DNA from: Candidatus Saccharimonadota bacterium
GTDB taxonomy: Bacteria > Patescibacteriota > Gracilibacteria > UBA4473
Reading direction: 5' to 3'
DNA length: 32,000 nt
Assembly (NCBI GenBank): GCA_963677105.1
Contig: OY781871.1
Span: 810,001-842,000, forward strand
This document shows, piece after piece, positions 2,802-31,987 of the stretch. The position numbers and the translations under genes were made by a program. The first letter of the stretch is position 1; each line of letters starts with the position of its first letter. The notes under the pieces were generated by a model. That model ran no database searches. It was given only the letters and a program-made list of their open reading frames with translations, and was not told where the DNA came from.

Positions 2802-3236
2802 TTATATGTGTCCAGTACTGCCAAATCCACCGCGAGAATCATGGTTTGGGTGATTTACTTCATTCCATTCCGCTTGATCTGAACGAACAAAGAGTCCTTG
2901 TGCAAGGCGTTCTCCTCGTTCAACAATTACAGGGTTATCATCAAAATTTAGAACTTGTATTTTTATTTCATCTTCTGGGCCACAATAATCACAATCGATC
3001 AGTCCTGGAGAATTTGGAATCAATAATGACTTTTTCCGAAATAACGAACTGCGCGGTAAAATGAGCAGAGAATGACCTTCGGGGACTTTTACAATAAGGT
3101 TTCCGGGAACAAACCCGACAGCATGTGCTTCAATTGTAATTGTTTCACGTGCAATAAAATCAAAAGCACAACTTCCTTTGGTTTGATATTTCGGGAGAGG
3201 AAGTGTCGAATCAACGCGGTATACATTTATTTTCAT
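2802..3236 (-). CDS. dut: dUTP diphosphatase (trimeric dUTPase/dCTP-deaminase superfamily)
   Basis: Motifs PRSSL, GLIDCDYCG and C-terminal SRGGFGSTG. The track ORF extends to a TTG at 3272. The ATG at 3236 (MKINVYRV) is preferred because it avoids overlap with the divergent gene. Confidence 0.8.
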   Translation of the reverse strand: MKINVYRVDSTLPLPKYQTKGSCAFDFIARETITIEAHAVGFVPGNLIVKVPEGHSLLILPRSSLFRKKSLLIPNSPGLIDCDYCGPEDEIKIQVLNFDDNPVIVERGERLAQGLFVRSDQAEWNEVNHPNHDSRGGFGSTGHI

Positions 3237-3283
3237 CCTCGAAAAAGTAGCATTTTTTTGAAATTTTGGCAAAATCTAAGAAG

Positions 3284-4789
3284 ATGAGGAAAATATTTTT
3301 GGCTTTCAGTATACTTGTTCTTACAAGTCTAAATTATACATACGCAGAAGAAAGTGCAGTTGAGATTGTAGAGCAGGTTTTACAACCAGTTATTACAGTT
3401 GATTCGTTTGTTCCAATAGGAGAAAAAGTTCTTTTTGATGCAACAAATTCAGGATTACTTGCGCCATCTGCAGGAGTACCAGTTTATGCATGGAATTTTG
3501 GTGATGGAAGTCGTATGAAATGGGGATCTCAAGTTGGATATCAATTTGATAAAGCAGGACGATACACAGTACGTTTACAATTACGACAAGGAAGACAGAG
3601 GGAAGTAATAGAGCGGACAATTTCAGTGTTTAATCGTCGAGCAGTATTAGTTGCAGATCCAGATTTTGATGCTTCAGGATTAATTGAACGTGCTGGAAAA
3701 TATGGAATTTGGCTTGATGTTATACCATTTTCACGTTCTGTTTCAGGAGTGACAGCAGATGAGCAATTTATGAAGAAACTGCAAATAAAACAATCGTTTA
3801 TTGAACAGGCAGATTTAATTATTTTTTACACAGAAAATTCAGGAGGAGTTCAGGGAGTTGCACAATGGTGGAAAGGGTTGCCAGAAGAAAATAGATTTAA
3901 TCCTACACATAAGTTTTGGGTTCAAGTCTCAACTGGATCACTTTCACAATTGCGGAAATTATCACAACCAGGATTTGGGATATTGCAACCAGAAAAAATA
4001 TTACTTACGCGACCAGAGGCGTTAGATGTCATTTTTGCTGCAGCAAAAATGGAATCAGTGGCAAATGAGTTGCGAGCAAGAGGTGTAGAATCTCAAATAT
4101 TAGATGATCGTGTGAGTGCATCATGGTTCTTGCCAATTTCTCGAACAATGACGTATTTCGTAACACATGGAGTAACGCAAAGTGTTCTCTTTTTATTGTT
4201 AGTAGTGCCTTTTATAACTTTTTTAATTGCGTTTGCTAGACAAGTTATTGGATTACGAACATTTGGTGTTTATGCCCCATTAATGCTGACTTTGTCGTTT
4301 ATTTTATTAGGATTTAGATTTGGTTTTGCCGTATTTTCTGTAGTATTGATTGTGAGTTATTTGATTCGATTATTATTCGATAAAGTTGAGTTGCTCTATA
4401 TTCCAAAAATTTCATTACTTTTGTCGGCATTAGCGCTTTCATTTTTTCTTGTTCTGGGAGTAGCAGTGCAATTTGATACACAAACAAATTTAGCATTAGC
4501 TGTTTTCCCGATGTTGGTAATGTCAACAATATCAGAGAAATTTTTGTCTGCACAATCTGAAGGAGGACTAAAATCAGCCGTACAAATAGCAGGAGAAACA
4601 GTAATCGTTTCATTATTGGCATTCATGTTTGTTCAGTGGAATTGGATGCAAAATTTAATACTTGCGTTTCCTGAAATAATGTTACTTCCAATTCTAGGAT
4701 GTATTTGGATTGGACGATGGACAGGATTGCGGTTGACTGAATATTTTCGGTTTTCAGCCTTATTTCGTGATGACTCCAGAGAAGAATGA
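3284..4789 (+). CDS. Secreted PKD-domain protein fused to a C-terminal 7TM module of the type usually fused to an inactive transglutaminase
   Basis: Signal peptide MRKIFLAFSILVLTSLNYTYAEE. PKD-like segment at nt 3386-3631 with WNFGDGS and GRYTVRL. About seven hydrophobic helices lie at nt 4172-4720, with RQVIGLRTFGVYAPLML and the terminal GRWTGLRLTEYFRF characteristic of that 7TM family. The track start at 3266 is TTG, so the ATG at 3284 is preferred. The stop overlaps the next start (ATGA). Confidence 0.75.
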   Translation: MRKIFLAFSILVLTSLNYTYAEESAVEIVEQVLQPVITVDSFVPIGEKVLFDATNSGLLAPSAGVPVYAWNFGDGSRMKWGSQVGYQFDKAGRYTVRLQLRQGRQREVIERTISVFNRRAVLVADPDFDASGLIERAGKYGIWLDVIPFSRSVSGVTADEQFMKKLQIKQSFIEQADLIIFYTENSGGVQGVAQWWKGLPEENRFNPTHKFWVQVSTGSLSQLRKLSQPGFGILQPEKILLTRPEALDVIFAAAKMESVANELRARGVESQILDDRVSASWFLPISRTMTYFVTHGVTQSVLFLLLVVPFITFLIAFARQVIGLRTFGVYAPLMLTLSFILLGFRFGFAVFSVVLIVSYLIRLLFDKVELLYIPKISLLLSALALSFFLVLGVAVQFDTQTNLALAVFPMLVMSTISEKFLSAQSEGGLKSAVQIAGETVIVSLLAFMFVQWNWMQNLILAFPEIMLLPILGCIWIGRWTGLRLTEYFRFSALFRDDSREE

Positions 4790-7089
4790 GTTTTTTTCAA
4801 CGAGCAAATCGGATATTAGGCATGAACGCGCGTAATCTAGAATACGTTGCTCGACACAATTCTTTTGCAGATAAAAAATTCGCAGATGATAAAATTTTTA
4901 CCAAAAATTTTTTGTCATCACGTGGTATTGGAGTGGCAAAATTATTTCATGTAATACGCTCTCATACACAAGTAACACCAGAGTTTATAAAATCTTTACC
5001 GAGTGCATTTGTTATAAAACCAAATCGTGGGTTTGGAGGAGGAGGAATTTATGTATTTTTGGAAAAACAAAATGAAAAATGGATCACTCCATCAGGAGAG
5101 AAGTTCGATGTAAATGATATTTTTCGTCATTGTATTGATATTTTAGAAGGAAAATATTCTATTTCGGGAGTACAAGACAGTGTTATTTTTGAAGAAGTAC
5201 TTGTGGCACATTCTGCATTTCGTTCTTTGACAGAAATAGGATTGCCAGATATTCGTGTAATTGTATTTAATCGTGTTCCAGTTTTAGCAATGTTACGAAT
5301 TCCGACAGAAGAATCTGAAGGAAAAGCGAATATGGAGCTTGGAGCATATGGAATGGGAATAGATTTATCTACCGGAAAAACTACTGGCGCAGCCTATCAT
5401 TCTAAATTTTTAAAAAAATTACCAAATGGAGAGCCTACAGTAGGATTTGAAGTTCCATTTTGGGACGAAATTTTATTAGCGGCAGCACGAGTACAACATA
5501 CAACAGGAATTGGGTTTTTAGGATGTGATTTTGTAGTGGTTCCATCAGGAGTAAAGGTGTTGGAAGTAAATGCTCGACCAGGATTAAAAATTCAAATAGC
5601 AAATAATACGCCGTTAAAACCTCGTTTGAAAAAAGTAGCAGATTTGAATATTGCGTCTCCAGAAGATGGAGCAAAAATAGCAAAACAATTATTTGCACAA
5701 ACTGTTTCAGTAGACTCATCAAAACCAAAACGAGAAGTAATCGGTGCGATTGAGTCAGTCGTATTAAATCTTTCTTCTCCAGAAATGGTATTAGCAAAAG
5801 TAGATTTAGGTGCCTCAGCGAACATTATTTCTGCTCGTTTTGCAACAGAGATAAAAGGTCTTTTGGACATAACAATTGGAGGACAACGTTTAAAATTACC
5901 AGTAAAAGAAGGGGAAACAGGGGAGTTTGACTTGCTCTTAGCTGGAAAATTTTTAACTGATTTTCTTATTGATGTGAACAAAAAAGTTGAACACTCTCCG
6001 GAGCTTATTGCTGCGGATTTAGATGAACGAAAATTAAAAAGTTTAGATGAAAAAGTATCAGAGATAGATGAGCAAATAAAACTTTTATCTGTTCTCAATC
6101 CGAGGAATTTATTGGAACAAAAAGAATTATTTTTTGCTCATAAAGATTATGTTCCTCGATTTCTTTATCGTGCTATTGAGTTAGACATTGATCGTTTTCG
6201 CAGAGAGTTAAAACGATTACCAACTAATATAGATCATATATTGGTTCCATTATTTAAAAATAAAATCCAAGAATTATCATATAAATTGGACTTAATTGAA
6301 GCACGAGAAACAGATCATTTTTCACAAGCCTCAGAAGTTTTATTTGGAAAAGTAACACAATCTCTGTATCGAGAAGCAGTAGATTTCATAAAGAAACATG
6401 CAAAAATTCTGGCAGACACGAGTTTAGTCGTTGATGCAAAGGGAGCGGCGGCGGTGGTTGAAAATTTTTGTAAGAAAAATAAATTGGGACATTGGACGGT
6501 TTCAATCATTAATGATTCTGTGGCAGATATGCAGGTTTCCAAAAAAGGGAAAGTGCTCATTCGGAAAGATGCGACCTTTACTGAAAACAGATTAACAGCG
6601 TTATTAGTACATGAAATTGGAACACATGTGTTTCGATTTGAAAATGGAAAACGACAAAAATTCCGATTATTTGAGCGTGGAACAGCTGGATATTTAGAAA
6701 CAGAAGAAGGATTGGCGATTTATAATCAAAACCAATTAGGACTTCCTTTAGGTGAAAAATTCCTTACGCCGGCATTATTGGTTGTTGCGATTTTCTTGGC
6801 GAAAAAGATGGGGTTTCGTGAGTTATTTGAAATTCTACAACAAACCTATTCTTTATCCGATGAAGTTGCATGGAAGCTGTGTGTAAAGGCAAAACGTGGA
6901 ACGGCGGATCAATCAAAACCAGGTTCATTTACTAAAGATTTGGCATATTTCAAGGGAGAACGTGCAATTGAAAAGTTCGTAGAAAATGGGGGAGATATTC
7001 AGAGTTTATACATTGGAAAAGTAACTATTGCTGATCTAAAAGCACTGAAAAAGTTTGATGACATGGTAAAGCCGAAATGGAGTTTATAA
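4786..7089 (+). CDS. Three-domain fusion: RimK-related (alpha-L-glutamate-ligase-like) ATP-grasp, retropepsin-like DUF785 domain, and DUF1704/QEGLA (MATCAP-like) metallopeptidase
   Basis: aa 1-290: ILGMNARNLEYVARHN..FADDKIFTKNFL, VIKPNRGFGGGGI and LEVNARPGL are ATP-grasp hallmarks. aa 317-399: MVLAKVDLGASANIISA ... DLLLAGKFLTDFLIDV resembles the DUF785 pattern AKIDTGA...LLGR..L..F.VD. aa 418-767: LNPRNLLEQKELFF..PRFLYR, HEIGTH (nt 6610-6627) and ETEEGLA (nt 6697-6717) match DUF1704/QEGLA. Confidence 0.8.
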   Translation: MSFFQRANRILGMNARNLEYVARHNSFADKKFADDKIFTKNFLSSRGIGVAKLFHVIRSHTQVTPEFIKSLPSAFVIKPNRGFGGGGIYVFLEKQNEKWITPSGEKFDVNDIFRHCIDILEGKYSISGVQDSVIFEEVLVAHSAFRSLTEIGLPDIRVIVFNRVPVLAMLRIPTEESEGKANMELGAYGMGIDLSTGKTTGAAYHSKFLKKLPNGEPTVGFEVPFWDEILLAAARVQHTTGIGFLGCDFVVVPSGVKVLEVNARPGLKIQIANNTPLKPRLKKVADLNIASPEDGAKIAKQLFAQTVSVDSSKPKREVIGAIESVVLNLSSPEMVLAKVDLGASANIISARFATEIKGLLDITIGGQRLKLPVKEGETGEFDLLLAGKFLTDFLIDVNKKVEHSPELIAADLDERKLKSLDEKVSEIDEQIKLLSVLNPRNLLEQKELFFAHKDYVPRFLYRAIELDIDRFRRELKRLPTNIDHILVPLFKNKIQELSYKLDLIEARETDHFSQASEVLFGKVTQSLYREAVDFIKKHAKILADTSLVVDAKGAAAVVENFCKKNKLGHWTVSIINDSVADMQVSKKGKVLIRKDATFTENRLTALLVHEIGTHVFRFENGKRQKFRLFERGTAGYLETEEGLAIYNQNQLGLPLGEKFLTPALLVVAIFLAKKMGFRELFEILQQTYSLSDEVAWKLCVKAKRGTADQSKPGSFTKDLAYFKGERAIEKFVENGGDIQSLYIGKVTIADLKALKKFDDMVKPKWSL

Positions 7090-7129
7090 TCGCTTCGCTT
7101 CAAAGCTCAAATTACAAAGTGCAAAGTGT

Positions 7130-7717
7130 TTATTCTGTAATTTTTTTATACCAACTTGCAGCGAGTTTTTTATCTCCAGCTTCATCTTCATAGTCAAAAA
7201 TTTTATCTTTTTCCCAACCATTCTTTTTGTGAGATCCATGTGATTTTTCATTGTCTTCGTCAATTTGACAACACATAAAAATTTGTTTTTTTGTTTGTTT
7301 GCAAATTGTGCGGAGTACATCTTCAGTTTTCATTTCTAGAGCAGAAGAAACTCCTTGGCGACGAAAATTTTCATCTACCCATAGTGAATGTAACCAGTGG
7401 GAGTCAGTAGATTTTCCATATGATTTTCCTGCATTGACAATGCGGGCACCTATTACTTTTTCTTCTGATTTTGCAAGAACGAAAATCATACCAGATTTTT
7501 TTAAATGTTCTTTAAAATCTGTGACTGAGGTGAGTCCTCGTGATTTCAAAAACTCATCAGATGATTTTTTTCGATTTTTATATAAATCAATTAAAGATTC
7601 TATAGTTGCATCGTCTCCAGGGTTGTTTGCAGAAAAAACATCTACAGGAAAAGTTTTTGGAGCTTGTTCAAAAGTTGCTGGTAATTCTGTGATTTTTTCC
7701 ATCTGTATATTATACAT
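7130..7717 (-). CDS. GNAT family N-acetyltransferase
   Basis: LHSLWVDENFRRQGVSSAL is the acetyl-CoA-binding motif A (R/Q-x-x-G-x-G/A). A downstream N..S....K.NGW segment resembles motif B. 195 aa. Confidence 0.7.
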   Translation of the reverse strand: MYNIQMEKITELPATFEQAPKTFPVDVFSANNPGDDATIESLIDLYKNRKKSSDEFLKSRGLTSVTDFKEHLKKSGMIFVLAKSEEKVIGARIVNAGKSYGKSTDSHWLHSLWVDENFRRQGVSSALEMKTEDVLRTICKQTKKQIFMCCQIDEDNEKSHGSHKKNGWEKDKIFDYEDEAGDKKLAASWYKKITE

Positions 7718-13690: not shown

Positions 13691-14614
13691 TTACGCCTCA
13701 CAAATTGCTCGTGCCATTTCAGCGCGAGTGATGGATCGATGTGGATCAATATCTCCAGAAGTAGGTAGAAGCATTTCTCGAGTTTGCGCTTCGTTTGTGT
13801 ATTTTTTAAACCACTGACTTCCAGCAATATCACTTAAATTTTCTTCTTTAGTAGCAAAAATAATTTTTACTGCTTCTGCTCGAGTTACTGGATTTGCAGG
13901 ACGAAAAGTTCCGTCTTCATATCCAGAAACAATTCCTTGAGAATACGCTGTTGTGACGTATTTTTCATACCATTCATTTGCTGGAATATCTAAAAAAGGG
14001 TGTATTGAAGAATTTGCAATTGATACCTGAAAAAATTCTAATACGATTTTCAAACATTCTGCTCGATTGAGCGTGTCATTTGGACGAAAATTTCCTGTCT
14101 GACTATCACCATTTACAACGCCTGATTCTTTGAGTTGTGCAATAAATTCATATTCCGGGTGATTGAGATCGACGTCTGGAAAACAGGAAGTTTCTGGGTT
14201 TATTAACTCACTAAACCATTCACCAGTTGTAGTAAAAACGCGTTTTGCTCCATACCATGCATTTTTCCAATAATCTGTGTTGAGAGAATCTTCTACGACT
14301 TTTTCATTGTACGAATTCGCATTTATAAATTTTCGATTTCCAATGTAGATTCCTACGTGATTTGGTTTTCGATCTGTCCAACCAGTATCAAAAAACACAA
14401 AATCTCCGATTTGTAAGTTTTCCTTCGAAACCTCTGTTCCAATAGAGTATTGATCAGTACTTGATCGAGGAATTTCTTTTGAAAAAATCTCATCACAAGC
14501 ACAACAAAGTAAACTTGAGCAATCATATTCATTTGGACCATTTGCGCCCAATACATACGGTTTCCCGAGACAATCTGTACAAAATGAAACTAAATCGGAG
14601 ATAGTTTTACTCAT
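13691..14614 (-). CDS. NlpC/P60 (C40) cell-wall peptidase with three C-terminal SLH domains
   Basis: GKPYVLGANGPNEYDCSSLL contains the catalytic Cys and NHVGIYIG the catalytic His. Three SLH-like repeats follow: F.DV....PEY.FI..L...GVV.G....FRPNDTLNRAE, FLDIPANEWYEKYV..A...GIVSGYEDGTFRPANPVTRAE and a third ending SITRAEMA. The ATG at 14614 is preferred over the ORF-track start at 14701, which would overlap prfB. Confidence 0.8.
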   Translation of the reverse strand: MSKTISDLVSFCTDCLGKPYVLGANGPNEYDCSSLLCCACDEIFSKEIPRSSTDQYSIGTEVSKENLQIGDFVFFDTGWTDRKPNHVGIYIGNRKFINANSYNEKVVEDSLNTDYWKNAWYGAKRVFTTTGEWFSELINPETSCFPDVDLNHPEYEFIAQLKESGVVNGDSQTGNFRPNDTLNRAECLKIVLEFFQVSIANSSIHPFLDIPANEWYEKYVTTAYSQGIVSGYEDGTFRPANPVTRAEAVKIIFATKEENLSDIAGSQWFKKYTNEAQTREMLLPTSGDIDPHRSITRAEMARAICEA

Positions 14615-14624
14615 AAAAAAAAGA

Positions 14625-21514: not shown

Positions 21515-21706
21515 ATGAAATCGAAAAAAACAGCTCAAAAGATAAAAATGGAATTAAAAGGCCAGGATCGAATGATGTCTGCATTGAAAGATATTATGAA
21601 AAAATATGCAAAACAAACGGAAACTTTTATCCAAAAAGAAGACTCAGATACGGTAGAACATTTGCTTCAAGAATTTCCTAATACCGAAAACGATGTCTCG
21701 CTTTGA
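21515..21706 (+). CDS. Small hypothetical protein (63 aa), overlapping the start of the giant ORF
   Basis: The ATG ORF encodes a helical-looking Lys/Glu-rich peptide. Its TGA (21704-21706) lies 14 nt inside the next gene. A competing frame (ATG 21506..21681) has a less protein-like sequence. Confidence 0.35.
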   Translation: MKSKKTAQKIKMELKGQDRMMSALKDIMKKYAKQTETFIQKEDSDTVEHLLQEFPNTENDVSL

Positions 21707-24700
21707 TTCGGATGAGAGGGAATACGTTCAAGATAGATTGAAAGAAATTAAAAAATCTCTGGATGATTTGAAGGCAGAAGTGGAAGTTTCTAGAAGTGAT
21801 GAAAAAAAGATTGAACGGAGAAGAAAGGAAATGAAGAAGATGGTGAAAGCGTGTAAGAAATCTCTTGGGCTGCGCAGACGAGAGTCTCTTACACGAGAGC
21901 AAAAAGAAGACTTACATCTTTTGTCTACAGAATTTTATAGTGAAGAATATGAAGATTTAGACAGATTTAAAGAAGAGTTTCAGGAATTATCTTCCCAGCA
22001 ACAGATAGAGTTTGCTTATAATCAAGTATCAATGTCTTGGAGAGAAAAACGAAGGTTTTTTGAAAATATGGAATTGTATCAAGAGACAGGAGTTCCTGTG
22101 GCAGATATATTAAAATTAGTCGCGATAGAAGAATATGTAGAACAGGGAGAAGTGAAACTGGATATTTTTGGAAATCAACATGCTCCTTGGAATACACCGA
22201 ATGTTATAGAAATATTACCAGGTGGCTTAGAAAAGGCTCGTACGGAAATATCAGGATATTATGAAGTAGCGCTTTTAGTTGCACCTTTTACCAATCCTAC
22301 AGAAATTCTGTATAAAATAGATAATTTATCAAATGAAATTGATCGACCAGAAGTACAAAAAATTATAGAAATTGTTCATCAAAAAAATCCTGAAGGGATT
22401 ATGAATGAGTATTCAGAAAAAAATCCTCGAGCATATATTGATAAGAAGAAAAATGCAGCAGATGTATTACTTCTTCCGGCACAAAATCCACAGACAGCAA
22501 AAGATTTCTTTTCTTATTTTAATACAATAATTAAAAACTCATTTACAGAGAATGATTCAGAGAATAATAAACGATTAGAATCTGTTTTAAAGACGGCGAG
22601 TGAAAATGTATCAGAAGAAGATGAAGCAATAACAGAATTAATCAATATTGTTCTTTCAAATAAAGAATGGAATTCTGCAGAAGAGAAAACAAAACAAATA
22701 ATTGAATCAATTTCGAATTATGATTTATCAAAAATTAAGATATACACAGAAACAAAAGAAGTTGATGTCGAAGCAGCTCCATTTCCGTCACTCATTATTC
22801 CTCATTTAGGATTTCGTTTAGCGTTATCATTATTTCCAGAAGTTTATCCTCAAATAAAAGAAATTACTGGCAATGAATTAGGAAAAAAAATAACAACGCA
22901 GATCATACAACAAAATTTGCAGAATCGAGAACGTGTAGATGAAGTGTTGACTTCAAGTAACGTAGGTACAATGACGAAGGATTCAGAAGAAGTGTACAAA
23001 GACAACAATGTATTAAAAATGTTTGCAGAGACGGGTGATTTGGATGAAATATTAAATTATGTAGAAACAATAGACGATAGTTATTGGTGTAAAGCTGTTA
23101 TATTAGAAAATTTTTCTTCCGAAATGAAACGGAAAGATTTTCAGAAAATAGATGAAGATGGAAATGGGGAAGACACAGTTGCTGAACTTCTGTTTTCACA
23201 ACTTTCTTTTAATGAGGCACAAAAACATTTTCCAGCTTATTGTGAAAAATTAGGAATAGAAAAAGCTTCAGTATTGATGAAACCAATTTTTGAAAAAGCG
23301 TGGAAAAATAATACATATAATTCAAGAAACAGTTTTACATTTCTTCTTGCTTATTGTACGGAAGACGCTGGATACACCGACGAAATTTTTTCAAGTCTTG
23401 TAAAAGTTATGATTGATATAGATCGACCAAGAGTGATACAAGAATATCATTATTTTAAAGGAGAAAATGGGAATTGGCCACAAGATCACGAAAAGAGATT
23501 TTGTTCTTCCATACAGGAATTAATACCTTCTTTGTGTGCGAAAGAATATGGGGATTATTTTGAGCAACGTAAAATACAGGAAGATTTGGAAGCACCAAAA
23601 TTGAATATTGATGAAATTCATCGGAGTGATCTCTCTGAAAATTTATTAACATATTATGAAAATTTTACTGAAGAATTGGGAAAAGAGGAAGGAGAAGAAG
23701 CATTTCGTTTACTGTTGCAAGAATCCGGAAAAGTAACATCGTTATTTTATAATTTAAATTGGGAAAAGTTTTCACAAGACAAACAAGAATTTTTTGTAAA
23801 AACATGGATTAAATTCGATTCAGAGAAGCCAATTTATCGCTTAAATAAAATGCCTGATAGTTTGCAAGCATTTGTTGTGGAAATTTATTCAGATAAATAT
23901 ATAGACCGAGTTGGAAGTAAGGGTATTTGTTCGATCTTACCAAAATATTACAAAAAGATATCAGAAACAGAGGGGACAGGGGAAGCACAAAGAAAGGTTG
24001 TGGAATTACTACAAACAATGTCGGATGTAGAAAAGGTTCTTGATTATCATTATTGGAATTATGAAATGCCAAAGGACTTACAAAAACTCGTTATAAAAAC
24101 AGTGGTTCCATTGGCGCCGGAAAAGATAATATCTAATTATGATGATGTTGATTATCGTATGCGTGAAAAGGAAGTGCTTCCAATTTTATTACAGGGACAT
24201 AGAGAGCTCTGTATAAAACATTTTGATAAAATAGATTCTTACTTACATGGTGTTGACGATTTAGTTATAGATAAATTTTTTGGGAATGATCCTCAAAAGA
24301 CAATGAAAGAAATTCTTCTTACAAAGAGTGGAGTCGAGAAATCTAAATTAGAGAAAATATTTTCTCAGGCAGCAAAAAAAGAATTTTCATTTTTTCCAGA
24401 GACCTATGGAAATAGAGCGTATTTGAATATTTCAAATCGGAAAAAGCAAACAATTATTCATAAGCCAAATGAAGAAAAGTTTTTGCATGCGTGTTTGGTA
24501 GAAATGGTTGGAACAGGGGGAAAAGCAGGACTGATATTAGAACTTCTTGAGCGTCAAGGGTTTAATGTAAATATGTTTGATGATGGAGATCAAGTGTGGT
24601 TTGAGAATCAAGAATTTCATGTTCAAAGAGCAAAAGATGAGAGTATTGAAAGAGTGACATTGTATTGTGCTCGAGAAGACTTAAAAGGTTTAGGAGATTG

Positions 24701-26621
24701 GGATAAGGATAGCTGTTTGAGGTCACTAGGAGAAAAAGAAATAGTAAAAAGGGCGAAGAGAGGCGCAATGGAAGAAGTATTAGAGAATCTTCCAAATGTG
24801 GATGGATATTTTAAGAGAGATTTTATAAAAATATTTAATAAGCTTTCGTACTCTTTTGCACTAGAAACACTTCCTGATGATAATCTGCCGAATGGAACGC
24901 CCGAAATAGATATTAGTAAAAATCAATTAAGATGTTTGGCTAAAGTGTATCCTGATTTTATTTTGAAAAATATAGAAGTGTTATTAAACAATCACTTTAT
25001 TAAAGTGAATTGTATAGATTTGCTAACCGGACTTGGACCTTTTTCACCAGAGCTTTTTTGGGAAAAATTTGAGGTTATAAAAAAATATGCATTAGAGACA
25101 CCAACCAAGAAAAAACATGGAAATAATTCACCGGATTATTCATTGATGTCGGATATGTTTCTAAAATTGGCAAAGCAAAAAGAGGGAGGAAAAGAAATAT
25201 TTAAAAATATGGGAATAGTGAAAGCGTGTGTAAGTAATGAGGAGTATTTAACAGAAATATTTAAAGGAGCTGCTAAAACAGCGCCAGCAAATGCGTTGAA
25301 ACAGGAAATACTTTCTGAATACAAAGATTTTCTACAGGGAAAAGAAATCATAAACAGAGCCATAGAGTATGCTGAAAATGATGAGAAATTTATGTCGATT
25401 TTTGTATCTGCTCCAACGTATTATACCGAGTCGTATAAAGAAAAACTTACGTCAATTGCTATTAGACATTCGGAAAAGACAATGGCAATCCTTCAATCTC
25501 AGGAAGTGAAAAATGTATGGGAAGGAGCTGGACTTACAAATGTAAGAGAATATTTTGTGAAACAAGTTGAGCGTGAACTCATTAAAAATGAAGTTTATAC
25601 ATTTATTGAAAATAATCCTTCAAAACACCCTCAAGATTTAAAATCGGACCCAACATTAGAATATTATCCAGAAATCAGAGATACATGGATTACTTCGAAT
25701 GAACATTTCAAAAGTAGACCAAAATTAAAACTTCGTTTTGATCCTTCTTGTCGAAAAGAATTAAATTCACCAAAAGCTATTAAACGAAGAAAACTCTTAA
25801 TTGCTCGATATTTGGGGTTGAGAAATAAAGATTTGAATCCATCAGATATTACTCCAGAAATGGTACAAGAAGCAGATTATAAAATATTTGAGGCAAAGCA
25901 AAAGAAATACAATAAGCCTTTATTTCAAGGACGAAATGTAATAGGATATTTCCCATCAAGTGATTTAGGAATAAAATTTGAGAATTTAAAACAAGCGATT
26001 GGTGCGCAACAAACAAATAAAAACGGAGAGGTATCAGGATCGTATATTGACTTTCAAAAAGGAGAAAGATTGAGTGACGGAGCACGTGATCAAATTATCA
26101 ATGCCGATCCGCCTCTTACTTTTATAACGCATAAACATAGTGCAAGTTCAACAGTGCGTGAACTTCAAGATGCATTAATAAAACGATGGGAAAGATTGAC
26201 AGCTGAAGGAGTAGAACCTTCAGAAGAAAATAGAGATTTTCTTGTTGTTGGAGGTTGTGGCATAACGGATGACCTTAGAGATGATCTTTGTAGAGCGATG
26301 AAAAAGAGAGGATATCCTATTCCAGATATTGTTGTAGAAACAGAATATGGACAATATGGATATGCTTATTACAAAAAAGAAAAAAATACGGAATTTGGAT
26401 CATCATTTTTGGATAGAGTAGTTTTTAATAAAAATCCTCAAAAAATTTCTACATTTGGAACTATGTGGGAAAATCGAGATAAATATTATGAGATGAAAGA
26501 CTCGAAAGGAAAATCTGTTCTTCCCGGAAATGCAACATTTTTAAGTGAAGATGAACTTGGGGAATTATTACAAATTGCAATGAATGAAGAAGATGGAGTT
26601 GATGAGTTTGTGAATGTTTAA
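21693..26621 (+). CDS. Giant hypothetical protein (1642 aa), no signal peptide or TM segment, function unknown
   Basis: Uninterrupted 4.9-kb ATG ORF with uniform coding-like composition, flanked by a promoter-like site and a strong terminator. No known family motif recognised by eye, apart from a weak His/Cys dyad pattern near the C-terminus. Confidence 0.8.
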   Translation: MSRFDSDEREYVQDRLKEIKKSLDDLKAEVEVSRSDEKKIERRRKEMKKMVKACKKSLGLRRRESLTREQKEDLHLLSTEFYSEEYEDLDRFKEEFQELSSQQQIEFAYNQVSMSWREKRRFFENMELYQETGVPVADILKLVAIEEYVEQGEVKLDIFGNQHAPWNTPNVIEILPGGLEKARTEISGYYEVALLVAPFTNPTEILYKIDNLSNEIDRPEVQKIIEIVHQKNPEGIMNEYSEKNPRAYIDKKKNAADVLLLPAQNPQTAKDFFSYFNTIIKNSFTENDSENNKRLESVLKTASENVSEEDEAITELINIVLSNKEWNSAEEKTKQIIESISNYDLSKIKIYTETKEVDVEAAPFPSLIIPHLGFRLALSLFPEVYPQIKEITGNELGKKITTQIIQQNLQNRERVDEVLTSSNVGTMTKDSEEVYKDNNVLKMFAETGDLDEILNYVETIDDSYWCKAVILENFSSEMKRKDFQKIDEDGNGEDTVAELLFSQLSFNEAQKHFPAYCEKLGIEKASVLMKPIFEKAWKNNTYNSRNSFTFLLAYCTEDAGYTDEIFSSLVKVMIDIDRPRVIQEYHYFKGENGNWPQDHEKRFCSSIQELIPSLCAKEYGDYFEQRKIQEDLEAPKLNIDEIHRSDLSENLLTYYENFTEELGKEEGEEAFRLLLQESGKVTSLFYNLNWEKFSQDKQEFFVKTWIKFDSEKPIYRLNKMPDSLQAFVVEIYSDKYIDRVGSKGICSILPKYYKKISETEGTGEAQRKVVELLQTMSDVEKVLDYHYWNYEMPKDLQKLVIKTVVPLAPEKIISNYDDVDYRMREKEVLPILLQGHRELCIKHFDKIDSYLHGVDDLVIDKFFGNDPQKTMKEILLTKSGVEKSKLEKIFSQAAKKEFSFFPETYGNRAYLNISNRKKQTIIHKPNEEKFLHACLVEMVGTGGKAGLILELLERQGFNVNMFDDGDQVWFENQEFHVQRAKDESIERVTLYCAREDLKGLGDWDKDSCLRSLGEKEIVKRAKRGAMEEVLENLPNVDGYFKRDFIKIFNKLSYSFALETLPDDNLPNGTPEIDISKNQLRCLAKVYPDFILKNIEVLLNNHFIKVNCIDLLTGLGPFSPELFWEKFEVIKKYALETPTKKKHGNNSPDYSLMSDMFLKLAKQKEGGKEIFKNMGIVKACVSNEEYLTEIFKGAAKTAPANALKQEILSEYKDFLQGKEIINRAIEYAENDEKFMSIFVSAPTYYTESYKEKLTSIAIRHSEKTMAILQSQEVKNVWEGAGLTNVREYFVKQVERELIKNEVYTFIENNPSKHPQDLKSDPTLEYYPEIRDTWITSNEHFKSRPKLKLRFDPSCRKELNSPKAIKRRKLLIARYLGLRNKDLNPSDITPEMVQEADYKIFEAKQKKYNKPLFQGRNVIGYFPSSDLGIKFENLKQAIGAQQTNKNGEVSGSYIDFQKGERLSDGARDQIINADPPLTFITHKHSASSTVRELQDALIKRWERLTAEGVEPSEENRDFLVVGGCGITDDLRDDLCRAMKKRGYPIPDIVVETEYGQYGYAYYKKEKNTEFGSSFLDRVVFNKNPQKISTFGTMWENRDKYYEMKDSKGKSVLPGNATFLSEDELGELLQIAMNEEDGVDEFVNV

Positions 26622-26712: not shown

Positions 26713-26732
26713 AAATTAATTTTATGTATTTT

Positions 26733-27455
26733 TTATTCCATTGCTTGATTTACTCGCATAACAATACTTGGAAGTGCAGATCCTTGATCGTTGTATCCAT
26801 CTTTAAGAGAAAAGTTTTCTGTTTTTCCGTTTAATTCAAGTTGGAAAATATATGGATCATTGTCTCCGTCATAAGATTCTGGAGTGTGTCCAGCACCTTT
26901 TGCTTTTACAGGATCTGGATTCTTTGGAATATAAATTTTTCCCAATGTTCCAAGACCAATTTCATAACGACCATTTTTTAATGATGTGTTTGAAAAATCA
27001 ACATCACATTTTACTTGTTTTTTTAGATCGTCACAAAAGTCTTGAATATCAATTACTTCATTATTTTCTACATTTGCGGGGAGAGAGGTTCGTGCAACAT
27101 TCACAATTTCTTGACTATCAGTTACAGACAATGGATCCATTCCGAGCATATTTTCTGTTTGTCCGGCCTCCATTAAGTCTTCCATTAAATCAGTCCATTC
27201 ATCTTTTGTTGCTAATGCAGTTGCTAAGTCAGCTGCATCTTTCAGAATTGATTCATACATAAAGCGTATATTATCATTTTCTGATTCAGGGAGATTTGGT
27301 AAATCTGCTCCTCCATATTCAGCTTCTAATGAAAGAATGAAATTTGATTTTTCAAGAAATGCTTCTTTTGTTACATCCTCTAACCCAGCTACTCGAACGT
27401 ATTCATTTTCGAAGTTACTTTTTGAGGAAGCCGATAACGATTCACGATTATTCAT
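26733..27455 (-). CDS. Hypothetical acidic protein (240 aa)
   Basis: ATG ORF starting 13 nt after the stop of the upstream 568-aa gene. Asp/Glu-rich, with no signal peptide or known motif. Confidence 0.6.
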   Translation of the reverse strand: MNNRESLSASSKSNFENEYVRVAGLEDVTKEAFLEKSNFILSLEAEYGGADLPNLPESENDNIRFMYESILKDAADLATALATKDEWTDLMEDLMEAGQTENMLGMDPLSVTDSQEIVNVARTSLPANVENNEVIDIQDFCDDLKKQVKCDVDFSNTSLKNGRYEIGLGTLGKIYIPKNPDPVKAKGAGHTPESYDGDNDPYIFQLELNGKTENFSLKDGYNDQGSALPSIVMRVNQAME

Positions 27456-27468
27456 TATAAAAAAGGTT

Positions 27469-29175
27469 TTATTTGTTTCTTCGTGGTTTATTTCTCATTG
27501 CAGCTTGCATAATTTTTACATTAATTTTTGAAATATCTTTGGCTGCAATTATTTCTTTCTCTAAATATTGTCCTGTAACTTCTACATCTCCATTTTCTAA
27601 AACAGTACATTGATACTTATTTTTTCCTACTGTTTTTTCTACATTAGCCCCTCCTAAGAGTTCAACACTTTTTTTCTTTGTGCCAGTAGAAGTAACTTCC
27701 TTTTCTTCAGGTTTTTTTGGTTGTTCCTCCTTTTTAGCTGGTTTTTCTTCAGGTTTTTCGGGAATACTTTCTTTAGGTGATTCACTTCTATGAGCGCTTA
27801 AATGTCGTCTAATGCTTTCTTCTATAGATCCGGTATGAGGTCCCACAAGTATGAAATTTTGTTTGTCCTTCTCTTCTACTTTAATATTTCCACTTTCTAA
27901 AATTTCGCATTTAAATTTTTTACCATCAACTTTTTTGGTTTTCTTTTTTCCTTCCAAAAAGTCGATAGCTTCTTCACGTTTAATATAATTTTCTCGTTTT
28001 TCATTTGCAGTCTTTTTCATTTTTGCAATAACTTCTTCTGTTTTCTTCAAATAATTTGAAGCATCAGCCGCTGGGATAATAAGTTCATCCATTTTTCCCC
28101 ATGTTTTTTTGTCTTTCTTCTCTTTTTGCACTTCTACTTTTCCTGTTACTTGGATATCTCCATTTTTTAAAACTTCGTATTTTAAATTTCTATCAGGAGC
28201 CTCAACAGTCTTCTTTCTTGTTCCTAAGATATTAATACTTGCTTCCTTGCTTGGTTTGAATTCTTCCTTCGGTTTAGGCTCAGGTTTAGCAGCAGGTTTT
28301 GCTTCAGGATTTGCTTTCGGTTTAGGCTCAGGTTTAGCAGCAGGTTTTGCTTCAGGATTTGCTTTCGGTTTAGGCTCAGGTTTAGCAGCAGGTTTTGCTT
28401 CAGGATTTGCTTTCGGTTTAGGCTCAGGTTTAGCAGCAGGTTTTGCTTCAGGATTTGCTTTCGGTTTAGGCTCAGGTTTAGCAGCAGGTTTTGCTTCAGG
28501 ATTTGCTTTCGGTTTAGGCTCAGGTTTAGCAGCAGGTTTTGCTTCAGGATTTGCTTTTGGTTTAGGTTCAGGTTTAGCAGCAGCTTTATTTTGTGCTTCC
28601 ATAAATTTTTTTGCTCCGTCGCTTGTATAATCGTATTCTACATCAGCTGGATCTTGGATTTGAATTATAACGTCTTTTGTTGTGTCGTAATTTGGAGCTT
28701 TAGCAAACATTACTTTTTGTCCTGGGTGAATTAAATGTGCCCAGTTGTTTTCTTTTCCTCCAATAGTTCCTTGAATTCCTTCTTTTGCTGTTCCATTAGC
28801 ATTATAAAATTGAACAGTAGTTTTTGATGTAATATTAAATCGTCTTGCTTTCAGCATTTTTGCTCGATCTTTCCAAGATAAAGAAGAATCAATTCCTTTT
28901 ACACGAGCGGTTTCTGCTCTATCGAATCCATATGCAAGAGAAGCCAGGGTGTCTCCCTTTTTTACGGTTGTTGACATGGTATTAACTGCAAGATTTAGAT
29001 TAGTAAACTCTTTCAAATTATTAAGATCGGTTGAGATTTGATCTCTAATTTTGTTTTGTTCGGACGTTTCCCATTGTTTTGATGCATCAACTGCTGCATC
29101 TGTTCTTTTTTCTAAAATGAATAGAAAGGGGGAATGTCCTTTTTGTAAGCCGAAATCATGCGATAAATTTTTCAT
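27469..29175 (-). CDS. Modular repeat protein: LysM-like N-terminal region, Pro/Lys/Glu 16-aa tandem-repeat spacer, three C-terminal repeated modules
   Basis: TVKKGDTLASLAYGF ... IHPGQKVMF resembles the two ends of a LysM domain but carries a long insert. Then come six full copies plus one partial copy of AAKPEPKPKANPEAKP. Then three modules share K(Y/F)xCx(V/I)LE(N/S)G(D/N)(I/V)xV. Confidence 0.7.
   Translation of the reverse strand: MKNLSHDFGLQKGHSPFLFILEKRTDAAVDASKQWETSEQNKIRDQISTDLNNLKEFTNLNLAVNTMSTTVKKGDTLASLAYGFDRAETARVKGIDSSLSWKDRAKMLKARRFNITSKTTVQFYNANGTAKEGIQGTIGGKENNWAHLIHPGQKVMFAKAPNYDTTKDVIIQIQDPADVEYDYTSDGAKKFMEAQNKAAAKPEPKPKANPEAKPAAKPEPKPKANPEAKPAAKPEPKPKANPEAKPAAKPEPKPKANPEAKPAAKPEPKPKANPEAKPAAKPEPKPKANPEAKPAAKPEPKPKEEFKPSKEASINILGTRKKTVEAPDRNLKYEVLKNGDIQVTGKVEVQKEKKDKKTWGKMDELIIPAADASNYLKKTEEVIAKMKKTANEKRENYIKREEAIDFLEGKKKTKKVDGKKFKCEILESGNIKVEEKDKQNFILVGPHTGSIEESIRRHLSAHRSESPKESIPEKPEEKPAKKEEQPKKPEEKEVTSTGTKKKSVELLGGANVEKTVGKNKYQCTVLENGDVEVTGQYLEKEIIAAKDISKINVKIMQAAMRNKPRRNK
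28270..28585 (-). repeat. 48-bp tandem direct repeat, about 6.6 copies, in frame within the 568-aa CDS
   Basis: The unit CGGTTTAGGCTCAGGTTTAGCAGCAGGTTTTGCTTCAGGATTTGCTTT recurs at 28270, 28318, 28366, 28414, 28462 and 28510 with no differences seen by eye. The terminal copy at 28558 has two substitutions. Confidence 0.92.
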
Positions 29176-29274
29176 GTATTAAAATTACATTAGATTATTT
29201 TAACATAACCTTTTAAAAAACACAAACGTATTATATACCATTTTCTAAAAAAAAGAACAGTCATTTTCATTTAA

Positions 29275-29308
29275 AATAAAAAGTGGGAACAATATCCCAC
29301 TTTTTTAT
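29275..29308. terminator. Rho-independent terminator after the 239-aa gene
   Basis: An A-run, then AAGTGGGA (29281-29288), loop ACAATA, TCCCACTT (29295-29302), then TTTT. Confidence 0.55.
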
Positions 29309-29330
29309 AATTATTAGTAATGTGAATTAA

Positions 29331-30050
29331 TTATTCAATATCTCCTTCCAAACGTTCTCCTCGATAAAGACGACGAAGTGAAATTCCTTTATATACATAA
29401 GGTTTTTTAACTCGGCGTTTATATGTAGAAGAAACTTGTTGGCGATTTGATAAATGATTTTTCCAGCCATCTGTTGTTTCTTGAGCTTCTAATCTTTTGG
29501 TTCGACTATTAGCCTCTGTGCTCCAAAATTCTCCCGATAGTTGTCCAGAACGATCCATTTCTGTCGCAGAACCGCTTTTTATTCCGCTTCGTGCATTTCG
29601 ACGACGACTCCAGTCTTCTTTATCTTTTGTTAGGCGACGAGAGTCTTGTAACAGGAATTTTTTTGTTGTTCCAAACGACATTGTTGTAGTAGTTCGTGTT
29701 GCGCGTTTTTCTTTTCCTAGACTTTTTTCTCTATCAGAGCCTCCTCGAGTAAGGGTTCCACTTCCAATACGTCGTCTTCCGAGCACAGAAGGTTTTTCAG
29801 TATTTTTCGTTGCTGGACGTGATTTTATTCGGCGTTGCCAACGACGTTTTAATACTTCCTCAGGACTTGCACCAGTTTTTTCTGATGAGTAATTTTTACA
29901 TGAATCAACAATTTTCCAGTCACTTGGAATTTCCTTAGTATCTGTGAAAACCTTACAAGTTCCGTGAGAATCAATTGCAGATTGTTTTACATCAACTGCA
30001 AGAGTTATTGTGGGCAACATGAGAGCTGTAATCAATAATAATTTTTTCAT
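29331..30050 (-). CDS. Secreted Arg/Lys/Ser/Thr-rich polycationic protein (239 aa)
   Basis: Signal peptide MKKLLLITALMLPTITLA-VD. A short two-Cys region is followed by low-complexity basic sequence (KRRWQRRIKSR, GRRRIG, SRRRNARS, KRRVKK). Confidence 0.6.
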   Translation of the reverse strand: MKKLLLITALMLPTITLAVDVKQSAIDSHGTCKVFTDTKEIPSDWKIVDSCKNYSSEKTGASPEEVLKRRWQRRIKSRPATKNTEKPSVLGRRRIGSGTLTRGGSDREKSLGKEKRATRTTTTMSFGTTKKFLLQDSRRLTKDKEDWSRRRNARSGIKSGSATEMDRSGQLSGEFWSTEANSRTKRLEAQETTDGWKNHLSNRQQVSSTYKRRVKKPYVYKGISLRRLYRGERLEGDIE

Positions 30051-30059
30051 AATTAATAA

Positions 30060-30914
30060 TTATTTTAAGGTTTCTTCTATCACGTCATCTTCATATCCAT
30101 TTACAGGAATATTTGTAGGAAGTGGGCGTTTTGTATATTTTTTCATAGACATTGGCCGTTGAAGTTTTATTTTTTTAGTAGCAGGATTTTCTTTTTTAAA
30201 ACGATTTAAAGATCGCACTGACCGATAAGTCGATAATTTTTTTATAGCTTCCTTTTGTGATGCGTCGGTAGTATTTAGTGAAACTTTTTTTTGTGAAATT
30301 TGTTTCGGTGTTTCATATCGTCTTTTTGTATTTGCTCGAATTGTCTTTGAGGTTGAAATATTGATTTTTGATGTAGGAGAAATGAGTTTTGCTTTACGTG
30401 ACTTTCTTATAGAGATTGTTCGTTTTGATTTTACTGGAACGAATCTTTTCGATTGGATTTGGATTTTCTTTTTGAATTCTTCTGGTTCTACTTTTTTTAC
30501 ATTAGAATTCGTAGAAGACTTAATAAGAGTAGGTTTTATTGATAATTCTTTCTTTTTTTCAGTCTCCATTAAATACTGTTTCTTTTCCATTTCTTTTTTC
30601 TCCTTCCAATCAATTTTTGTTTCTTCAGGAGTTTTATTTTCTGTTAAATATGGAATATTAATTTTCCGTGTTTTTCTTTCTTGATGTCTTATAGATGTTA
30701 CAACTGGTTTTTTTATCACAGTTTTCTGTTCTTGCATTTCTTCTTGTTCTTCGCTTATAGGCATTATTGTCATTGGATCACATATTTCCTGTTCCATAGA
30801 ATCATCACATATATGTTCTATCATTTCCTCAACAGAGATAGAGGCAGGTACATCATTTGTTGCAAACGCAAAAGTGGGGAAAATGATTACTGAAGCCAAA
30901 AGTATTTTATTCAT
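30060..30914 (-). CDS. Secreted Lys-rich polycationic protein (284 aa)
   Basis: Signal peptide MNKILLASVIIFPTFAFA-TN. An acidic two-Cys segment is followed by a long Lys-rich tract (KEKKEMEKKQ, FKKKIQIQSKR, IRKSRKAK). The stop lies 9 nt before the next start. Confidence 0.6.
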   Translation of the reverse strand: MNKILLASVIIFPTFAFATNDVPASISVEEMIEHICDDSMEQEICDPMTIMPISEEQEEMQEQKTVIKKPVVTSIRHQERKTRKINIPYLTENKTPEETKIDWKEKKEMEKKQYLMETEKKKELSIKPTLIKSSTNSNVKKVEPEEFKKKIQIQSKRFVPVKSKRTISIRKSRKAKLISPTSKINISTSKTIRANTKRRYETPKQISQKKVSLNTTDASQKEAIKKLSTYRSVRSLNRFKKENPATKKIKLQRPMSMKKYTKRPLPTNIPVNGYEDDVIEETLK

Positions 30915-30916
30915 GA

Positions 30917-31987
30917 TTAATTACGGTTACGGTTTAGTAGTCGATTTCGTAGTGCTTGGAGACGAGAAGCTCGTGTATTAGAACTTGATGAAGAAGTAGA
31001 TGTACTACTTTTTCGTTCTAATGAACGAAGTTCTTTTTGATATTGTTTAATTAAATTTTTTAATTCAGTTATTCGTGCCTTAATTTCACTACTTGTCTCA
31101 GGAGTAGCGGAAGTGGTTGTAGCACTTGTTGAATTCGAAGTGGTGGTGTCAGGAGTCGTTGTTCCACCAACATTGTAACGAATTCCTAAATTTCCACGCT
31201 TTAATACACGACGATTATAATTTGATTTTTGACGAGATGTAAATGCTGCTAGTGTTTTTGTGTTGATCGTTTCACTTTTTCCAAAGCGGGTAGTTCCTTT
31301 TTTGAAATATCCAGTAGCGTAATATTGTGTAGTTGGAGTTAATCCTTCAATGAAAGCAGTTGTAATATTTCTTGGTATAACAACTTCTGCAACAGGAGAA
31401 GAGAGATCATCATTTTCAGATAAAACAATTACAAATCCATCATAATCGTTCGAACTAATACTAGGTGTGGACCATTTAAAATGAATAGATGTATCAAATT
31501 TTTCAGCTCGTAATTTTCCAAAATTAAAAGCCATATCATCTGAAGAAGAATTATCAACAATAACAGGATCATTTGCTGCAATAAATTCAGAAGTGACATC
31601 TCCATTTGTTGCCCATTCCCATTTTAATATCTTAGATCCATTGTTTAGATATTTTTTTCGTCCATCAGTTTTCAACGAATATACACGGAAATAATATGTT
31701 TGGTTTCTATCAAATCCTGCTGATCGAAGTGTCAATGTGTTTTGATTTTTAGAGGCCTGATTTCGGTATAATTTGTCATTTCGAATGTCATTTTGTACGG
31801 TACTATATTGCAGAACATATCCGCCATTTTCATCAAACATTTCACTGTCAGTGAGTTTGTCCCATTCAATCAAAAGCTGATTACCAGCAGGTGTTACATC
31901 GAGATTTTCAATCTGTCCTGCAAAAACAATGGGAGAAACTAAGAAAGCAAACCCAAATACGAAAGCCATAGGAAAGAATCTTTTCAT
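30917..31987 (-). CDS. Secreted protein with two FN3-like domains, Thr/Ser-rich linker and basic coiled-coil tail
   Basis: Signal peptide MKRFFPMAFVFGFAFLVSPIVFA-GQ. FN3-like patterns LLIEWDKL...YVLQYS...YYFRVYSL and IHFKWSTP...FVIVLSEN...TTQYYATGYF. Then TTTPDTTTSNSTSATTTSATPETSS, followed by heptad-like EIKARITELKNLIKQYQKELRSLERK. Confidence 0.55.
   Translation of the reverse strand: MKRFFPMAFVFGFAFLVSPIVFAGQIENLDVTPAGNQLLIEWDKLTDSEMFDENGGYVLQYSTVQNDIRNDKLYRNQASKNQNTLTLRSAGFDRNQTYYFRVYSLKTDGRKKYLNNGSKILKWEWATNGDVTSEFIAANDPVIVDNSSSDDMAFNFGKLRAEKFDTSIHFKWSTPSISSNDYDGFVIVLSENDDLSSPVAEVVIPRNITTAFIEGLTPTTQYYATGYFKKGTTRFGKSETINTKTLAAFTSRQKSNYNRRVLKRGNLGIRYNVGGTTTPDTTTSNSTSATTTSATPETSSEIKARITELKNLIKQYQKELRSLERKSSTSTSSSSSNTRASRLQALRNRLLNRNRN

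Follow-up and report, generated by a model that had tools for sequence, protein, structure and literature searches.

Within a 32,000-nucleotide (nt) stretch of contig OY781871.1 (positions 810,001 to 842,000, forward strand; hereafter the window) from a Candidatus Saccharimonadota bacterium, which GTDB places in the Gracilibacteria of the Patescibacteriota, we analysed a pair of genes for a seven-transmembrane (7TM) protein of the RloB type and, directly behind it, a single polypeptide of 767 amino acids (aa) that joins an ATP-grasp amidoligase to a retropepsin-like domain and a MATCAP-type carboxypeptidase. The ligase and the carboxypeptidase retain intact sites, the retropepsin-like domain has lost its aspartic site, and the 7TM partner ends in a conserved Glu-Glu pair (-EE) on a tail that is predicted to be cytoplasmic. 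By analogy with known ligase-peptidase systems we propose, at a probability of roughly 0.5, that in this two-gene module, which is conserved in Patescibacteria, the ligase would extend the -EE tail of the 7TM protein and the MATCAP domain would trim it. The features concerned, all on the plus strand, are listed below.

3266..4789 (+), gene for the RloB-type membrane protein; the mechanical start is TTG at 3266, and ATG at 3284 (MRKIFLAF…, signal-peptide-like) is likelier.
4712..4786 (+), C-terminal tail of the 7TM protein (…GLRLTEYFRFSALFRDDSREE), predicted to lie in the cytoplasm, the proposed acceptor or substrate.
4781-4786 (+), terminal Glu-Glu codons GAAGAA of the tail sequence, followed by the TGA stop codon at 4787-4789.
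4786..7089 (+), three-domain gene, an intact open reading frame (ORF) of 767 aa with an ATG start and a TAA stop.
4831..5637 (+), RloC-type ATP-grasp amidoligase domain, aa 16-284, predicted to be active (PF14397, TIGR02291, Foldseek).
5734..5982 (+), degenerate, flap-less retropepsin domain of the DUF785/RloA/RimB type, aa 317-399 (AlphaFold2, Foldseek, profile search).
5803..5811 (+), remnant of the catalytic triad, reading D340-L341-G342 where active domains have D-T/S-G (orthologue alignment).
6046..7056 (+), MATCAP/DUF1704 (TIGR02421-like) zinc carboxypeptidase domain, aa 421-757, predicted to be active (PF08014, TIGR02421, phmmer, Foldseek).
6610..6627 (+), HEIGTH, the HExxxH zinc-binding and catalytic motif (H609, E610, H614), aligned to HEIGTH of human MATCAP and invariant.
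6703..6711 (+), EEG of the TEEGLA motif (E640-E641-G642), putative third metal ligand, aligned to TEEGLA of human MATCAP and invariant.

The 7TM partner is composed of a signal peptide, an extracellular PKD domain, a region of ~190 aa, seven transmembrane helices and a tail of 25 aa. Pfam assigned PF14402 (7TM_transglut) to aa 304-499 (E 2e-29) and PKD to aa 42-110, and hydropathy showed a signal-like segment at the N-terminus and then the seven transmembrane segments, at aa 306-482. As a signal peptide is followed by seven transmembrane segments, the tail is predicted to face the cytoplasm. The RloB model NF052267 matched the 7TM part only, with 72.7 bits against a cutoff of 900. The PKD domain and the ~190-aa region sit where classical RloB carries an inactive transglutaminase (PF14400); in that region (aa ~110-300 including the end of the PKD domain, window 3593-4165) Pfam returned no match, and PF14400 was not found. 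In one Buchananbacteria locus (L003) the partner is the 7TM module alone, with 269 aa. The stop codon of the 7TM gene overlaps the ATG of the three-domain gene by 4 nt (ATGA), hence the two genes are probably co-transcribed and translationally coupled. A search for contigs that encode the window protein itself gave no result, so the gene context was read from the loci of homologues. A 7TM_transglut gene stands directly upstream in the window, in five further homologue loci with called genes, in nearly all of the 80 loci taken from GTDB species representatives, and in nearly all of the 156 related loci surveyed.

The window partner ends in …FRFSALFRDDSREE, and its tail peptide reads LTEYFRFSALFRDDSREE. 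In a survey of 156 non-identical related loci, the partner ended in -EE at 29 of 34 loci with a fused MATCAP domain, with three more ending in -QE, compared with 2 of 111 other loci; one of these two, L155, has a truncated gene and groups with the fused clade. The Fisher p-value for the association of -EE with the fusion was 4e-23, a value that ignores phylogeny. Over 27 distinct tails the last two positions had entropies of 0.46 and 0.75 bits, as against 2.4-3.4 bits at positions -3 to -10. The fused loci with neither -EE nor -QE, L019 and L022, are two of the three that keep the D-T-G of the retropepsin domain; from the third, L093, the tail was not recovered. The idea that -EE merely results from a purine-rich ribosome-binding site serving the downstream gene was rejected, because -EE is present at intergenic gaps ranging from -4 to +161 nt. 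One two-domain locus without MATCAP and with an active-looking retropepsin (L072, 'uncultured Gammaproteobacteria', KIDTGAQ) has a 7TM partner ending in …REEDEEE; it is the only complete locus of this kind with an acidic end, and its tail may be an independent gain.

For the ligase domain, Pfam PF14397 (ATPgrasp_ST) covers aa 16-284 with an E-value of 2e-54 and 184.9 bits, against a gathering threshold of 31.4. The best NCBIfam model was TIGR02291 'alpha-L-glutamate ligase-like protein' with 239 bits, below its 314-bit cutoff, and the RimK family model TIGR00768 reached 37.1 bits against a cutoff of 143.4. The domain resembles RimK structures at fold level only: in a Foldseek search with the full-length model (predicted local distance difference test score, pLDDT, 89), the matches of the N-terminal domain include cyanophycin synthetase, RimK, ArgX/LysX and PsnB. 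A profile of the ATP-grasp domain matched no solved structure among the PDB sequences. Residues K78, E136, E137, D248, E260 and N262, including the LEVNARPG motif, are invariant; going by the usual layout of the fold they presumably line the ATP and Mg sites. The ATP-grasp domain is hence predicted from its sequence to be active.

The MATCAP domain is matched by Pfam PF08014 (formerly DUF1704) at aa 449-757 (E 1e-44, 153 bits against a cutoff of 27) and by TIGR02421 'QEGLA motif protein' at aa 421-756 (E 2e-49), where 168.8 bits fall below the equivalog cutoff of 338.65; it is a relative, not an equivalog, of TIGR02421. In a phmmer comparison with human MATCAP (PDB 7z5g; E 9e-16) HEIGTH and TEEGLA of the two proteins align, and in the Foldseek search the C-terminal domain matched 7z5g with an E-value of 2e-12 and a template-modelling (TM) score of 0.62, normalised to the target. 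H609, E610, H614, E640, E641 and G642 are invariant in the 42 orthologues of the 767-aa protein on which our active-site counts are based; the role of the EEG motif as third metal ligand is taken from PMC10499314. As these six residues are invariant and the retropepsin triad is lost, the MATCAP domain is the only peptidase in the protein with an intact site, and it is predicted to be active as a zinc carboxypeptidase. A first-pass annotation, made from the DNA letters and their translations, had already placed HExxxH at the DUF1704 metal site, had noticed ETEEGLA instead of QEGLA, and had regarded the MATCAP-like domain as possibly the peptidase left to work. All three readings are supported, the human protein having TEEGLA in the same place, and the structural likeness to MATCAP and RimK for which it had suggested looking was found in the C-terminal and N-terminal domain, respectively. 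Enzymes of the MATCAP/TMCP type take Tyr and Glu off C-termini and also make polyglutamate chains shorter (PMC10499314); some members of the present family are named 'tyrosine/phenylalanine carboxypeptidase domain-containing protein' by NCBI.

The gene order connects the window module with the rloABC system of Pseudomonas aeruginosa, whose parts are RloA, a secreted DUF785 retropepsin, RloB, a 7TM protein with an inactive transglutaminase, and RloC, an ATP-grasp protein (PMC12239564). In both, a 7TM_transglut gene is directly followed by a ligase of the ATPgrasp_ST/TIGR02291 type; TIGR02291 is the best model for the window ligase, and the upstream gene matches the RloB model. A DUF785 retropepsin is the third component, and RloA is the best structural match of the window's middle domain. 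The two systems differ in that the window retropepsin is fused C-terminally to the ligase, is cytoplasmic, without a signal peptide, and is dead, with no separate secreted, active RloA; in that a MATCAP carboxypeptidase has been added; and in that the partner has a PKD domain and ~190-aa region for the inactive transglutaminase of RloB and a tail ending in -EE. Furthermore, the window proteins score below the equivalog cutoffs of TIGR02291 and NF052267. Since every curated cutoff was missed, the protein and its partner are not equivalogs of RloC, RloB, RimK or TIGR02421. A classical RloB partner (PF14400 and PF14402) stands beside the ATP-grasp gene in Halarcobacter and Ectothiorhodospiraceae, and the Halarcobacter ligase (L083), the only such ligase scanned, reached 435 bits with TIGR02291, above the cutoff. 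The window module is best read as a variant, found in Patescibacteria, of the Rlo/Rim ligase-protease systems. Pseudomonas RloA cleaves polyglutamate, and loss of rloB or rloC suppresses an rloA triple mutant; the physiological substrate of RloA is not known (PMC12239564).

In the Rim system, RimK glutamylates the C-terminus of RpsF, and RimB cleaves the added glutamates and stimulates RimK (PMC11957791). As in the window, an ATP-grasp ligase is paired with a retropepsin-like partner, ligase-protease fusions occur (the RimBK hybrid), and the substrate ends in Glu-Glu (PMC11957791, PMC7343187). The window ligase, in contrast, does not belong to the RimK family (37 bits against 143), its protease is inactive, and the proposed substrate is a membrane protein and not RpsF; the domain order is ligase then protease, whereas it is protease then ligase in RimBK. 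The non-proteolytic role of RimB in stimulating RimK provides a precedent for keeping a dead domain. The eukaryotic MATCAP/TMCP enzymes (KIAA0895L, KIAA0895; PDB 7z5g, 7z6s; PMC10499314) share the fold and the HExxxH and TEEGLA motifs with the window protein. On tubulin they act opposite the ATP-grasp ligases TTL/TTLL on an acidic tail ending in -EE, an arrangement that we propose for the window as well. Here, however, writer and eraser would be one polypeptide, which is bacterial, has no tubulin substrate and lacks the microtubule-binding N-terminal extension, and whose activity is predicted. The stand-alone DUF1704 proteins of gammaproteobacteria (TIGR02421, 'QEGLA motif') belong to the same domain family; the window domain differs from them in having TEEGLA and not QEGLA, in being fused to a ligase and in scoring below the cutoff.

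We propose that the tail is extended and trimmed because a free -EE is the end used both by RimK on RpsF and by TTL/TTLL and MATCAP/TMCP on tubulin. Using ATP, the ATP-grasp ligase would append amino acids to the -EE at the C-terminus of the 7TM partner, most likely glutamate by analogy with RimK, which acts on RpsF at an -EE end. The MATCAP domain would take residues off the same C-terminus one by one, and the balance of writer and eraser would set the length of the tail and so tune the membrane protein. The dead retropepsin domain may have been kept for non-catalytic tasks, namely dimerisation via its terminal strands, stimulation of the ligase like that by RimB, and/or holding of the acidic tail. 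That the 7TM tail is indeed the substrate we put at even odds or slightly below. With more reserve, we suggest that the tubulin 'tail code' might have a bacterial counterpart in this module, and possibly its evolutionary forerunner, in that a fused ligase and MATCAP domain would make the genetically encoded -EE C-terminus of a 7TM protein longer or shorter in a reversible way.

Several observations weigh against this proposal. The association of -EE with a dead retropepsin domain marks essentially one clade and therefore reflects one event and its long-term conservation, not independent co-occurrences. The loci with a separate MATCAP gene, as well as L019 and L022, are without -EE, so the presence of MATCAP alone does not predict the tail. 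The N-terminal domain lies below the cutoffs of TIGR02291 and RimK and found no PDB sequence by profile. Finally, RloA is periplasmic in Pseudomonas (PMC12239564), so that the target of the ancestral system may be an exported product and not RloB itself.

The best-placed alternative is that the product of the ATP-grasp domain is a free peptide or polymer, such as poly-alpha-glutamate, whose length is set by MATCAP and which is exported or sensed by the 7TM protein, with -EE serving only as docking site or primer. RimK does make free poly-alpha-L-glutamate, stimulated by RimB (PMC11957791), the secreted, polyglutamate-cleaving RloA of Pseudomonas implies an extracytoplasmic substrate (PMC12239564), and most 7TM partners outside the fused clade have no acidic C-terminus. 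A free product, however, explains neither the conservation of EE at the last two residues next to eight variable ones nor the coincidence of -EE with the switch to a carboxypeptidase, which needs a free C-terminus, and we consider it rather unlikely. A second alternative keeps the tail as acceptor and lets the ligase add one residue other than Glu, for example Tyr or Phe, which MATCAP then removes. The -EE acceptor and both enzyme folds fit the tubulin tyrosination cycle, MATCAP removes the C-terminal Tyr of alpha-tubulin (PMC10499314), and the NCBI name of some members, 'tyrosine/phenylalanine carboxypeptidase domain-containing protein', points the same way. The fact that the ligase is closest to the glutamate-ligase-like families of the RloC/RimK type, not to TTL, and that TMCP/MATCAP enzymes remove Glu as well (PMC10499314), makes such a single-residue cycle improbable compared with the extension and trimming proposed here.

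The middle domain was recognised by its fold and not by family models. The segment gave no Pfam match even at E<=10, PF05618 included, PF05618 was carried by none of the best 120 of 827 homologues, and no match among PDB sequences was obtained with the single sequence or with a profile. The AlphaFold model of the domain, built on the 42 orthologues, has a pLDDT of 94. Foldseek ranked RloA of P. fluorescens (9g58), the DUF785 protein Lpg0085 (2pma) and RloA2 (9g59) as its best matches, in this order and with TM scores of 0.73-0.76, normalised to the query; Ddi1 and then HIV/retroviral proteases followed lower down. A search of the domain profile against 1.8 billion representatives retrieved small proteins that pass the PF05618 threshold and carry AKIDTGA. 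By these two independent tests, fold search and profile search, the middle domain is derived from DUF785/RloA/RimB, in line with the earlier suggestion of a DUF785-like segment, though without a Pfam match. Also retrieved by the profile was a protein of 454 aa (P0152) with an N-terminal DUF785 domain followed by a RimK-type ATP-grasp domain, i.e. the architecture of the RimBK hybrid (PMC11957791) and opposite in order to the Patescibacterial fusions. A 1698-aa protein (P0130) with repeats such as …VEFxIAGKxYYAPVENGKA… matched the profile in five stretches (E 2e-11); it was set aside as a probably spurious match to beta-hairpin repeats.

The aspartic site of this domain has decayed. Triad position 1 is D in 29 of the 42 orthologues, N in 6, S in 3, E in 2 and A in 2; position 2 is L in 25 and P in 12; at position 3, G is left in 3 of 42. 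With 86 aa in the window against 109-112 aa in active DUF785 domains, ~23-25 residues are gone. Alignment with active domains shows that the flap hairpin is absent and that the DR motif has become EGE and GRxD has become AGK. G320, E323, R368 and D396 are conserved, as are the first and last strands (IG..E.V, FLID). Terminal strands of retropepsins form the dimer interface, and from this we expect the conserved strands to serve as one here too. Because the triad is not conserved among orthologues and the flap and the DR and GRxD motifs are missing, we classify the domain as a pseudo-protease and, as judged from the sequence, it is catalytically dead. The first-pass annotation had offered two options on the basis of VDLGAS, altered catalysis or a binding or dimerisation module; the change at the site, together with the loss of the flap, goes beyond what it supposed, and both options point in the right direction. 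A domain still active as an aspartic peptidase with a D-L-G triad, which would give the protein two working peptidases, could appeal to the Asp and Gly at positions 1 and 3 of the window protein (VDLGAS) and to the retained retropepsin fold. It is very hard to reconcile with the replacement of Asp by N, S, E or A in 13 of 42 orthologues, the near-absence of Gly, the deletion of the flap hairpin, DR and GRxD, and the finding that even the conservative change D31E abolishes RimB activity (PMC11957791). Moreover, D[TS]G is retained by all 112 of the two-domain relatives, so that selection on the site is visible where the site exists.

Nearly all of the best 120 of the 827 homologues of the 767-aa protein are 754-792 aa long with a query coverage of 98-100%, and three of these 120 (P0090, P0107 and one other) are partial, shorter entries. 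The homologues come from many independent assemblies and sources, with identities down to 45%, and the junctions between the domains are conserved in the orthologue alignment. Since full-length, collinear homologues come from many assemblies, the ORF is not a frameshift artefact. An artificial joining of separate genes, which relatives with MATCAP as a separate gene or behind an in-frame stop codon (L023, L098, L101) might bring to mind, has next to no probability given these collinear homologues and conserved junctions. The three-domain fusion is a genuine enzyme that is common in Patescibacteria; the named sources are Gracilibacteria, Peregrinibacteria, Buchananbacteria and 'Patescibacteria group'. 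Several contigs with fused or two-domain genes of the Patescibacterial type (L011, L013, L015, L021, L027 and others) bear the titles 'uncultured Gammaproteobacteria', 'Bdellovibrionales' or 'Saccharibacteria' ('binchicken' metagenome-assembled genomes), and one is titled 'Pacearchaeota archaeon'. These titles look unreliable, and a range of the fusion beyond Patescibacteria is at most tentative.

Code 25, in which UGA is read as Gly, is in use in some Gracilibacteria. It was rejected for the window, where 5 of 32 long ORFs terminate at TGA and many ORFs come to overlap when TGA is read through; the genetic code of the window is the standard one. The domain order ATP-grasp, retropepsin-like, DUF1704 that had been read from the translation agrees with Pfam, NCBIfam and the fold and profile searches, and the motifs lie where they had been placed: VDLGAS at aa 339-344, HEIGTH at aa 609-614 (nt 6610-6627) and ETEEGLA at aa 638-644. 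The joining of genes by a frameshift, which the first-pass annotation had named as a danger, is ruled out by the homologues. Its search suggestion led to an architecture that is widespread and in part already annotated automatically: some homologues are labelled by JGI as an 'alpha-L-glutamate ligase-like protein / TIGR02421 family' fusion. Its impression that no such protein had been characterised also agrees with our literature searches, in which no characterised ligase-peptidase-peptidase protein was found. The same searches, which did not cover the survey of Iyer et al. 2009, found nothing on an ATP-grasp-MATCAP fusion or on bacterial MATCAP function beyond annotation; that survey is said to have been the first to describe these gene neighbourhoods. 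Taken together, we hold the anatomy of the three-domain protein and the assignment of its middle domain as a pseudo-protease with high confidence.

Three architectures were distinguished among the related loci.

(c) ATP-grasp alone, ~310 aa, in Proteobacteria, Campylobacterota and Omnitrophota, directly after the 7TM gene.
(b) ATP-grasp and DUF785, ~430-500 aa, in many Patescibacteria, directly after the 7TM gene.
(a) ATP-grasp, DUF785 and MATCAP, ~770-800 aa, in Patescibacteria including the window, directly after the 7TM gene.

D[TS]G is intact in all 112 genes of type (b) but in only 3 of 37 genes of type (a), namely those of L019, L022 and L093, which carry D-T-G-E. In at least five subclades separate MATCAP genes adjoin type (b) genes, with the order MATCAP, 7TM, ligase-DUF785 in L044 and L050. 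At three loci only an in-frame TAG or TAA codon, not TGA, separates an ATP-grasp-DUF785 part with intact DTGA from a MATCAP part in the same frame (L023 at 4776-4778, L098 at 3845-3847, L101 at 3809-3811). Such loci may hold neighbouring genes that a single mutation would fuse; alternatively, the stop codon may be read through, as a programmed event or by error. In a neighbour-joining tree of the ligase domain the main fused clade forms one contiguous group, and L019 and L022 branch elsewhere. The L093 lineage lies at the base of the fused clade. Probably, MATCAP began as a recruited neighbour and was fused later, after which the endopeptidase site and the flap decayed in the main fused clade.

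The surroundings of the gene pair contribute no further member. The TTG start at 3266 overlaps the 5' end of a divergent ORF at 2802-3272 (-), confirmed as dUTPase (dut). A convergent GNAT gene at 7130-7717 (-) was rejected as part of the module, being absent from the other loci, and a promoter and terminator scan of 3100-7400 found sites no more numerous than in shuffles. An SLH-domain protein fused to NlpC/P60 is encoded at window 13691-14701 (-), and L001 has a gene for an SLH protein at 8502-9497 (-), close downstream of the three-domain gene. Both proteins may belong to the cell envelope of a Patescibacterium that has an S-layer; neither could be linked to the module. After a housekeeping run of ftsZ, ftsA and a 5'-3' exonuclease, window 21693-31987 holds six long ORFs, one of 1642 aa at 21693..26621 (+) and five on the minus strand at 26733..31987, which have no Pfam match at E<=0.01 except for a weak, sub-threshold V-SNARE match on the last.

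For the protein family, the three-domain enzyme is a case of peptidase displacement, in which the endopeptidase site and the flap were lost in the main clade with a fused carboxypeptidase and the fold and the terminal strands were kept; its middle domain is a natural case of a pseudo-enzyme. Hundreds of Patescibacterial proteins that are now labelled only 'DUF1704 domain-containing' could be named properly. The Rlo system matters for the ability of Pseudomonas to tolerate stress, resist antibiotics and form biofilms (PMC12239564), and the -EE tail on an RloB-type partner provides a concrete, testable candidate substrate for it. If the proposal is true, the module would be the first reversible C-terminal ligation of amino acids on a bacterial membrane protein, and the RloB tail, or peptides built on it, would be the missing class of substrates of Rlo-type systems. 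The fusion of a bacterial MATCAP with a RimK/RloC-like ligase suggests that the family originally served to reverse C-terminal ligation by ATP-grasp enzymes, which would fit the role of eukaryotic MATCAP opposite TTL/TTLL on tubulin.

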